DNA of 11,747 nucleotides from a virus (IMGVR_UViG_2698536355_000019:1-11747); one strand, 5' to 3'; shown: positions 6,001 to 9,000, counted from the first letter of the stretch. A program made the numbers.

Positions 6001-9000
6001 GGAACCAGCCATTGCTGTTTGTCTCAATAATGCTCGCCGGCCCCAGACGAAAACGGATTTGTGTCTCCCCCGGGTCGCCCTTCGGTCCCTGAGGTCCGGT
6101 TGCCCCCACCGGGCCAGCCGCACCTGTTTCTCCTTTCGGTCCCTGTGGGCCTGCCGGGCCTGCCGCACCGGTATCTCCCTTTGGACCCTGTGGACCTGCA
6201 TTTCCCGTCAGACCGGTCTCTCCCCGCTCTCCCCTGTCACCTTTCGGCCCCTGCGGGCCTGCCGGACCAGCATCACCTGCCGGTCCCCGTTCGCCGGTTG
6301 CCCCGACAGGGCCGGTGTCACCGCGCTCTCCCTTATCACCCTTCGGCCCCTGAGGACCCGCGGGCCCCTGTTCCCCCTTTGGCCCGGGAGGTCCCACCAC
6401 GGTGGGGATTCGGTTTACGGCCTCTTCCGCCGCTATCCTGCTTTGTTCCGCTGACTGTGCGCTTTCTGCTGACTCCCGGGCTTTTTCTGCTTCTGCCGGA
6501 GGAGTATGNTGGAGAGTGTTTTATCTGTGAACTCAGGCTGCCAGATCATCGTTTCCGATGGAAGCATAATAAGCTTTTTCTGCTTCTGCCGGAGGAGTAT
6601 GGCCCAGCCTTTCCAGCAATCGTCGATTGTTATACCAGTCCACCCACGTGAGTGTGGCCAGTTCCACTTCTGCACGGTTTTTCCAGCTCTTACGGTGTAT
6701 TACCTCCGCTTTGTAAAGACCATTGATGCTCTCCGCCATCGCGTTGTCATACGAGTCGCCTGTACTTCCTGTTGATGCCAGTAATCCGGCTTCCTTAAGC
6801 CGCTGTGTGTAGGCCAGCGATACATACTGAGAACCTTTATCACTGTGATGGACCGTGCCGGACGGTCGACGGGCCCATAACGCCTGCTCCAGTGCATCCA
6901 GCACGAATGTCGTCTCCATGGACGGTGAGACCCGCCACCCCACAATGTATCCGGCAAACACATCAATGATGAACGCCACATAGACGAAGCCCTGCCATGT
7001 GCTGACGTAAGTAAAATCAGCCACCCACAGCTGGTCAGGTCGTTCTGCCACGAACTGACGGTTTACGCGGTCGCCTGCGGCAACGGCTTTCCGGCTGATG
7101 GTCGTACGGACCTTTTTACCCCGGAGAACACCGGCAAGTCCCATAACCGCCATGAGACGTGCCACAGTGCATCTGGCCACTCTGATACCTTCCCGTAACA
7201 ACTGACGCCAGACTTTACGCACACCGTATACCTTGTGATTTTCATCGTATACGCGCTGTATCTCTTTCTTCAGCCAGTCATCGCGCTGCGCACGGGCACT
7301 GCGTTTATCCGGATGATGTCGCTGTTGCTGACAGTGGTAATACGTTGACGGGGCAATATGCAGTTCGCTGCATAGCGGTCCGACCCCGTACTGCTCACGC
7401 AGCTTATCCAGCAGTGGCATTATTTTTTCCAGAGGCGGTCGAACTCCGCCTTCGCAAAATAAGCGGAAGCCTGGCGAAGGATATCGTTACTGCGGCGCAG
7501 TTCACGATTTTCACGTTCCAGCTCTTTCAGACGCTGACGTTCAGCGGTGGTGAGCCCTCCATCACCGCCCCCGGTATCCCGCTCATGCTGGCGAACCCAG
7601 ACACGCAGAGTCTCCGGCGTACAGCCAATCTTTGGAGCAATGGAACAAATTGTCGCCCATTGTGAGTCATATTCGCCCTGACTTTCCAGAACCATACGGG
7701 CTGCCCGTTGACGGACTTCAGGGGAAAAACGAGTATTTTTAGTCATCCTGTTTACCTCTTTCTCAGGAAGTTTAGTCTCCAGGATTCCCGGGGCGGTTCA
7801 CTCTCCTTTTATCCCTGTATACAGGCCATCAATCAGAAAATTAACAGAAAAAACTGAAAAGATGTCTGTGAATTACACTTATCAGTCAATATGTTCTAAC
7901 ATCTTATAGTCTGGTTATCTCACCACGAACATTTTTAATACTTCCTGATGTGCAATCAAAATAGCACGAGTTTTCCCTAACAATCATTGACTCTGTTATT
8001 TTTTCTCTGCTCAGAGGATGAGGTGAACTTGTGTTAACAAGATGTTTTAATGATTCTTTATCATATAAAGTACATACATCTGAATTTCCAGCATTTCTCA
8101 TAATCACACCATGCTCAGGGATGCATAATGTAATCGGGCATGTTAATGCCTCTTCAGTCGCCCTCAGAGATGACGAGTTAACATTAAATGAGCATTTTTC
8201 TATTTGCTCTAACACCAACTCTGTTTGCATTACAGAAGGACGAGGTGGAGAAACATACGGGCTGGGTATACTTGCCAAAATCTGGCGGCCGGATAGCCCT
8301 CCATTAAGGTCGCGTTCAAGACGATTAACATTATTCAATGCAGTTTGTAAAGCTCTCTCTGATAATCCTTCAGGGCTTACACTTCCCATAAAGAAGCCTA
8401 AAAAGACAGAACGTATTGTAACAATAGTGCTCCCCATCTGAACCTGAGCTCCTCCGTTAAAAGCCAGTGTTCGTATGCCAGAAAGAGTATCCTGCGGTAT
8501 TTCCCCCAGTCCCCCACTCGCTGTTAGATATGGTGTTAAATTTATTGGCATAATAAAACCCCCATTAACTTCATTAACATTTTACTTGATTTCCTGTTGA
8601 AGCATCTTACTTGTCACAATGCTTTCACACACCATTATCAGTCTTGCAAAAGATAAGACTCCATTATCAAGCCAAAATAAATTTAACTTCATTAACAAAC
8701 ATCACCATGACATGACAACAAAAAACCGGAGCCGGGCTCCGGTTTTGTGAAGCTGTCGGGTTACTTCATCCCGCCAATATTTTCCCACGTCCCGTCAGCA
8801 CGCAGGATTTGCAGCGGTCTTACCACGCACTGTATCTGCTTTTTATCCGCATCCAGTATCACCACCTGCGTGATTACCCTGGCCTGCTCCGGGATAATGC
8901 CATTCTCATCGGACTCCAGAATGTCTGCCGGTCCCAGTCGCAGCTGTGCTGTAAGTAACTCCCCGTTTTCACGGTCATCATGCTTTCCGCAACCGCACAG

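Follow-up and report, generated by a model that had tools for sequence, protein, structure and literature searches.

A tail-fibre gene and an insertion sequence on either side of a single N

We analysed a stretch of 11,747 nucleotides (IMGVR_UViG_2698536355_000019:1-11747, hereafter the window) in which the tail-fibre gene of a lambdoid prophage and an insertion sequence (IS) of the IS629/IS1203 type stand on either side of a single N at position 6509. The window is the terminal part of the draft scaffold CYAM01000067.1 (GCA_001284805.1; 24,979 bp, with N gaps) and ends one base short of the scaffold end (11748). Its undetermined bases are this N and a run of N at 9711-9718, with no others. 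A preliminary description of the sequence had noted the single N, which we confirmed, and had read the junction as a misjoin between the first of three tail-fibre copies and the IS. The sequences flanking the N belong to different loci in related genomes, and the N probably represents an unclosed scaffold gap whose size was estimated as zero or negative.

The left side of the break, window 1-6489, contains pspG, dusA, an integrase gene, a DinI-like gene, nleG7, a hypothetical gene and the 3′ half of the tail-fibre gene. This last feature (5831-6489, minus strand) is the C-terminal part of tail-fibre copy 1 of a dusA-integrated prophage and has collagen-like repeats and a Phage_fiber_C domain, with matches to both Pfam models (Collagen and Phage_fiber_C). 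Copy 1 (5493-6489) agrees with copy 2 (8693-9690) and copy 3 (10296-11293) as far as 6489. The closest complete genome, NZ_CP144928, is collinear with the whole of window 1-6489 at 99.985 % identity with one mismatch, and its identity with the window also ends exactly at 6489. In NZ_CP144928 the tail-fibre gene is unbroken (5831-7144), and an intact gene running on to lom and gpJ is present there as well as in TB4019 and in O26:H11 genomes. At the site of the break NZ_CP144928 reads …GCTTTTTCTG|TTGCGG…, and copies 2 and 3 likewise give TTGCGG… after this 10-mer. The tail-fibre text expected after GCTTTTTCTG from copies 2 and 3 and the reference genomes is TTGCGGTCGTTGCATCCCTG…, whereas copy 1 has 19 nt of IS-internal sequence followed by the N. 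The true continuation of 6489 stands elsewhere in the window, at 11294-11747, where it begins TTGCGGTCG…; this segment of 454 nt at the scaffold end is 100 % identical to NZ_CP144928 6490-6943 and to the copy in GCA_977064715.1.

To the right of the N we identified, by Pfam matches and by comparison with complete copies, an IS629/IS1203-type element of the IS3 family (6510-7800, minus strand) covering IS positions 20-1310. Its orfA (7420-7746) matches HTH_Tnp_1 and its orfB (6533-7420) matches HTH_21, rve and rve_3. The two overlap by one base, 7420, and the helix-turn-helix and DDE/rve domains stand in a -1 frameshift arrangement as in IS3-family insertions; the RefSeq label of a homologue with 96 % identity (in genome L001) is IS3 family transposase with programmed frameshift. 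The left inverted repeat is whole, ending …CCCGGGGCGGTTCA at 7800. At the right end the IS opens at TGGAGAGTG and is without exactly 19 nt, TGAACCGCCCCGGGTTTCC, as judged against complete copies in five other genomes (L001, L002, L004, L008 and L012), which read TGAACCGCCCCGGGTTTCC|TGGAGAGTG; the preliminary description had put the loss at about 20 bp of inverted repeat. The 1291 nt of 6510-7800 together with these 19 nt give a reconstructed full IS of 1310 nt. The terminal 14-mer, 5′-TGAACCGCCCCGGG…, is present only once in the window, at 7787-7800 on the left, where a canonical insertion would have it at both ends. No target duplication is seen in the window: CTC stands after the left end and …GTATGN before the shortened right end. 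The CTC (7801-7803, plus strand) is one copy of a 3-bp target-site duplication whose partner copy and true right flank lie outside the window.

Between the two sides lies an exact repeat of 29 nt (GCTTTTTCTGCTTCTGCCGGAGGAGTATG), in which 6480-6508 is identical to 6573-6601. The exact copy of orfB-internal sequence had been recognised previously, but as a 28-mer at 6481-6508, one base too short. The 29-mer occurs twice in the window against an expectation of 0 in 200 shuffles, which rules out a chance origin. Its resident copy (6573-6601, plus strand) stands in its proper place in orfB, at IS positions 83-111 from the right tip, and encodes …HTPPAEAEKA…. The first part of the other copy is the 10-mer GCTTTTTCTG (6480-6489, plus strand), a word native to the tail-fibre gene and the IS alike, which forms the pivot of the chimeric join, as the preliminary description had proposed. 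This word occurs four times in the window, at 6480, 9681 and 11284 in the tail-fibre copies and at 6573 in the IS, and it is the only 10-mer in direct orientation that an intact tail-fibre region has in common with the full IS. The remaining 19 nt (6490-6508, plus strand; CTTCTGCCGGAGGAGTATG), hereafter the tag, copy orfB-internal 6583-6601 and replace the expected tail-fibre sequence TTGCGGTCGTTGCATCCCT. Past the 10-mer only these 19 nt of IS precede the N, and the IS then restarts 92 nt further back. On the minus strand (6480-6520) the tag keeps the reading frame of the tail fibre, such that OrfB …GHTPPAEAEKA would run on into the tail-fibre protein.

The IS at the nleG-like locus of a second prophage

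The sequence beyond the left end of the IS (7801-9710, minus strand) comprises an nleG-like effector gene (7904-8551; Pfam T3SS_NleG) and tail-fibre copy 2 of a second prophage, and directly adjoins the IS in relatives. Two long-contig assemblies, GCA_977064715.1 (in a 4.87-Mb contig; L008) and CP146555.1 (L012), give ungapped alignments of 3201 bp to window 6510-9710 at 99.2 % identity, and both have the same IS at the same left site (…GGTTCA|CTCTCC…). In these assemblies the insertion is canonical, …GTCCAGACAATACC CTC|TGAACCGCCCCGGGTTTCCTGGAGAGTG…IS…GGGGCGGTTCA|CTC TCCTTTTATCC, its right tip being complete and its target duplication the 3-bp CTC. The preliminary description had expected a whole terminal repeat and a duplication of 3-4 bp of any real insertion, and the same IS has both in these relatives. 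It had also proposed looking for the intact right end and its true flank; we located both in the same two assemblies, where the right flank, …GTCCAGACAATACCCTC (ending …ACC CTC), belongs to another prophage locus and not to tail-fibre copy 1. Empty sites in two further genomes (L009 and L011) carry a single CTC, …ACCCTCTCC…. The exact NleG-like protein encoded by 7904-8551 is found in many assemblies, in a prophage beside mlaA/fadL, and the two sides of the N at 6509 map to different loci in relatives, one next to dusA and the other next to mlaA/fadL. That this IS copy has an intact tip and another flank in relatives supports a misjoin at the N.

Set beside the canonical insertion in GCA_977064715.1 and CP146555.1, the window is alike in the element itself (99.6 % identity), in the GGTTCA|CTCTCC left junction, in the nleG-like neighbour and in the intact orfA and orfB. 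It differs in being without the right 19 nt (TGAACCGCCCCGGGTTTCC), the second CTC and the true flank, in place of which it has the N and a tagged tail-fibre contig. The CTC-flanked IS upstream of the nleG-like gene (window 7798-7803; about 6750 and 8042-8064 in GCA_977064715.1) is common to this draft and the two assemblies and is not present in eight other assemblies encoding an identical NleG-like protein; the insertion could serve as a lineage marker. A search of 5,426 complete E. coli genomes gave no match to the junction of the IS left end with the nleG-like region, though this junction is present in both long-contig assemblies.

Insertions of IS629 interrupt lambdoid-prophage tail-fibre genes of the same family in genomes of O45:H2 and O103:H2 (L001 and L002), with the IS family and relative orientation as in the window and at distances of 35 bp and about 1.15 kb from the window junction. 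They differ from it in that complete inverted repeats abut the tail fibre, in that the IS is of a subtype with 96 % identity to that of the window, and in that none lies at 6489. Over the element the window IS is 96.3 % identical to these copies and 99.1-99.7 % identical to the copies in E2865, GCA_977064715.1 and CP146555.1; E. coli thus harbours two circulating subtypes of the IS629/IS1203-type element.

The presence of such insertions in the tail-fibre gene of other strains, together with the equal length of the tag and of the missing IS tip (19 nt each), could be taken to indicate a canonical IS insertion directly after 6489 whose last 19 nt had been lost to gap filling and written over, the original sequence being …GCTTTTTCTG + TGAACCGCCCCGGGTTTCC + TGGAGAGTG…. 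Such an event implies GGGCTTTTTCTG, plus or minus a few bases, joined to TGAACCGCCCCGGG. However the left flank of the window IS is the nleG site and its right flank in relatives is …ACCCTC, such that a further, unseen IS copy would be needed. The target duplication is not visible, and no genome among the 5,426 has an IS at this position. We consider this explanation improbable.

Scaffold gaps and the origin of the junction

The second scaffold gap, eight N (NNNNNNNN) at 9711-9718, lies 3.2 kb from the first, and the left edges of both gaps stand at the same tail-fibre coordinate (9710 - 3201 = 6509). To its right (9719-11747, minus strand) are a partial nleG-like gene and tail-fibre copy 3, including the 5′ half common to the copies (11294-11747), which is due after both 6489 and 9710. 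This shared 5′ half appears once, at the scaffold end, and the three contigs leading into it stand in series before it. The segments 8116-9710 and 9719-11313 are identical save for 8 single nucleotide polymorphisms (SNPs), all within the 66 bp of 9237-9302. The apparent tandem duplication of 1603 bp looks, from this comparison, like two alleles of a collapsed repeat written twice and not like a real tandem array. CP146555.1 has the copy 3 allele at the 8 SNP sites. The right-hand contig of the second gap resumes in the middle of the nleG-like gene, at the equivalent of 8116, and a 10-nt word and its exact reverse complement border the gap (…TGCATCCCTG NNNNNNNN CAGGGATGCA…), an arrangement far beyond chance for which we found no explanation. 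The scaffold itself stops inside the tail-fibre gene, and a second draft with a similar accession prefix (CYGS01000001.1) stops at virtually the same coordinate; this suggests that short-read assemblies of such prophages share a repeat boundary.

We looked for the junction of copy 1 and the IS elsewhere. The junction region as written had no match in one piece among the complete E. coli genomes, nor did a hypothetical clean junction of the tail fibre with the truncated IS, and on these searches of 5,426 genomes a natural tail-fibre allele holding the tag was rejected. The exact junction string was not found in IMG/VR, in GTDB representative genomes or in JGI metagenomes. Among 5.8 billion proteins, a query spanning the would-be in-frame fusion recovered no OrfB–tail-fibre fusion and no junction-bearing fragment. 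The top-scoring protein matches (P0001-P0003) were rejected as fusions, being partial transposases with internal duplications. These partial IS629 OrfB sequences come from other draft E. coli records and contain internal tandem duplications of 25-55 residues (…AEVIHR|LASTGSTGDSYDN…AEVIHRKSW…), which may, on their sequence, be further assembly artefacts inside IS629 in public drafts. The truncated tail-fibre ORF (open reading frame) of 189 amino acids, used as a query, matched only further drafts in which a contig break cuts the tail-fibre gene, though not at this position.

Taken literally, the record would mean that the N is one miscalled base and that 29 nt of internal IS sequence moved to the tip of the element, replacing its terminal repeat. 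The record contains this arrangement and offers nothing more in its favour. We know of no IS3-family reaction that yields such a structure, which would leave the element with no right end. In relatives this IS copy has the canonical form, the flanks come from different chromosomal loci, the second N gap 3.2 kb away breaks alike at the same tail-fibre coordinate, and the structure was not found in any collection searched. We regard this possibility as very remote. IS excision or adjacent-deletion chemistry was also rejected as a source of the join: transposase-mediated events start at the IS tip and the join lies 82 nt inside the IS.

Several lines of evidence point instead to the misjoin favoured by the preliminary description. 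The record is a scaffolded draft with its N precisely where the break lies, the closest finished genomes cease to be collinear with the window at the same point, and the two sides come from different loci, the flank of the IS in relatives being a different one. These features, together with the single continuation shared by the tail-fibre copies and the draft origin of the record, are direct observations. On such sequence comparisons we think it fairly probable that the junction is purely artefactual, an unclosed gap in a short-read scaffolded draft and not contiguous genome.

The following course of events would account for it. The strain would have at least three lambdoid prophages with tail-fibre genes identical over several hundred bases, and an assembler unable to resolve the shared tail-fibre stretch would have written it once, at the scaffold end. 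Three contigs would enter this stretch, namely the end of the dusA prophage, the IS with the nleG-like gene and tail fibre 2, and the partial nleG-like gene with tail fibre 3. A paired-read scaffolder would then have daisy-chained the three, leaving N and NNNNNNNN where merging failed. The printed IS would belong to the second prophage as an ordinary CTC-duplicated insertion, its real right flank lying in another part of the genome. The tag and the loss of 19 nt from the IS tip would represent damage to the gap edges, which may have been cut back and afterwards extended or merged incorrectly, along a path that turns on the sole 10-mer common to tail fibre and IS. A gap-edge artefact of this kind predicts the shared tail-fibre coordinate of both gap edges; a real junction does not.

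By default GapFiller, a widely used gap filler, extends on an overlap of 29 nt, declares a gap closed on an overlap of 10 nt and trims 10 nt from gap edges (PMC3446322); these values match numerically the 29-mer, the 10-mer pivot and the deficits of about 20 nt on both edges. For a high-throughput pipeline of Velvet, SSPACE and 120 GapFiller iterations, its own authors state that greedy tools can make false joins (PMC5320598). The false joins and gap-edge errors described for SSPACE and GapFiller (Boetzer & Pirovano 2012, PMC3446322; Page et al. 2016, PMC5320598) resemble the window in the N between repeat-ended contigs and in the scales of 29, 10 and about 2 x 10 nt. They differ in that the use of these tools for this record is unconfirmed and the string is not derivable from them, and the parallel is circumstantial. 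A literature search on the accession returned no linked publication or pipeline; papers on the Sanger pipeline and on enteropathogenic E. coli (EPEC) from the Global Enteric Multicenter Study (GEMS) give context only. The accession series resembles that of deposits from the Velvet/SSPACE/GapFiller pipeline, a likeness we could not confirm. The exact software step producing the tag is speculative, although a tentative 10-nt merge failing a size test would fit.

A number of points weigh against an artefact of this kind. The misjoin is deduced from relatives and is not demonstrated in this strain, and the numerical matches to GapFiller, with the tool chain of the record unconfirmed, may be coincidence. 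Extension by exact 29-nt words alone cannot cross a 10-nt shared word, and because of this our attempt to derive the observed string (tail fibre, 19 nt of IS, N, and IS from position 20) from the published GapFiller algorithm failed. Scaffolders normally need read pairs linking the contigs that they join, here the tail-fibre contig and the IS contig. This hints that some tail-fibre copy of the strain may really adjoin an IS, and the 19-nt tag could report a real junction of a tail-fibre copy with a second, truncated IS copy.

The main rival explanation combines a real microhomology deletion with a collapsed repeat; in it the 6489/6490 join is real and from the N onward the wrong IS copy is printed. 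A second IS629-type copy would have entered tail-fibre copy 1 at a point further upstream, or another tail-fibre copy, and a loss between two direct GCTTTTTCTG words would have removed 82 nt from the right end of the IS along with the tail-fibre DNA in between. The contig would halt 29 nt into the repeated IS and be abutted to the only assembled IS copy, that of the nleG site, with the negative gap written as one N. The genome would in that event have CTCCCGGGCTTTTTCTGCTTCTGCCGG running straight into GCCCAGCC. The position of the join fits such a loss well: it lies exactly at the only direct 10-mer common to tail fibre and IS, with one copy at the junction, and the left sequence ends at the first wholly-IS 29-mer (6480-6508), as does a k-mer walk stopping on entry into a repeat. 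Exact k-mer or overlap assemblers need reads holding such a junction, and a real adjacency of tail fibre and IS would account for the linkage of the contigs by read pairs and for the single-N gap. IS629 also inserts in these tail-fibre genes, in the same orientation, in the O45:H2 and O103:H2 genomes, and the OrfB–tail-fibre fusion would be in frame.

The likeness to a short-homology (illegitimate) deletion consists in one copy of a 10-bp repeat at the join of otherwise unrelated sequences; unlike such a deletion, the continuity of the window extends for only 19 nt before the N, and no independent occurrence was found. The continuous junction was absent from the 5,426 complete genomes, the three other DNA collections and the protein records. 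The closest complete relatives have an intact tail-fibre gene, the left edge of the gap (6508/6509) shares its coordinate with the stop of the copy 2 contig (9710), and neither a second IS left end nor a tail-fibre 5′ flank was seen. We consider a deletion unlikely, while giving it appreciably more weight than either of the alternatives above.

Neighbouring features and consequences for the prophage locus

Each tail-fibre gene has, in its collagen-like Gly-X-Y region, internal repeats offset by about 108 bp with 71 % identity (6129-6367 and the equivalents in the other two copies). Just downstream, each tail-fibre C-terminal gene has a GC-rich, nearly palindromic stem with a run of T after it (CAAAAAACCGGAGCCGGGCTCCGGTTTTGTG; 5519-5549 in copy 1, 8719-8749 and 10322-10352 in the others), which we take as a probable bidirectional terminator. 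Genes of the NleG family of type III effectors (nleG7 and nleG-like) are carried as cargo just downstream of each tail-fibre module, at 3669-4319 (plus strand), 7904-8551 (minus strand) and 9537-10154 (minus strand). An ORF of 291 amino acids at 4544-5419, labelled CPD-like in the preliminary description, had no Pfam match.

The three tandem-looking modules of tail fibre and nleG, and the IS beside copy 1, are not to be taken as genome structure, nor as IS-mediated rearrangement or effector-gene amplification in this strain. Should the deletion prove real, the reading frame of OrfB would pass into the C-terminus of the tail fibre, with its collagen-like and receptor-binding parts, and the IS copy would be immobilised, although this would amount merely to one more strain-specific, pseudogene-forming deletion at an IS. 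As a probable scaffold misjoin, the case illustrates the daisy-chaining of repeat-ended contigs from lambdoid prophages, with short spurious tags at the gap edges.

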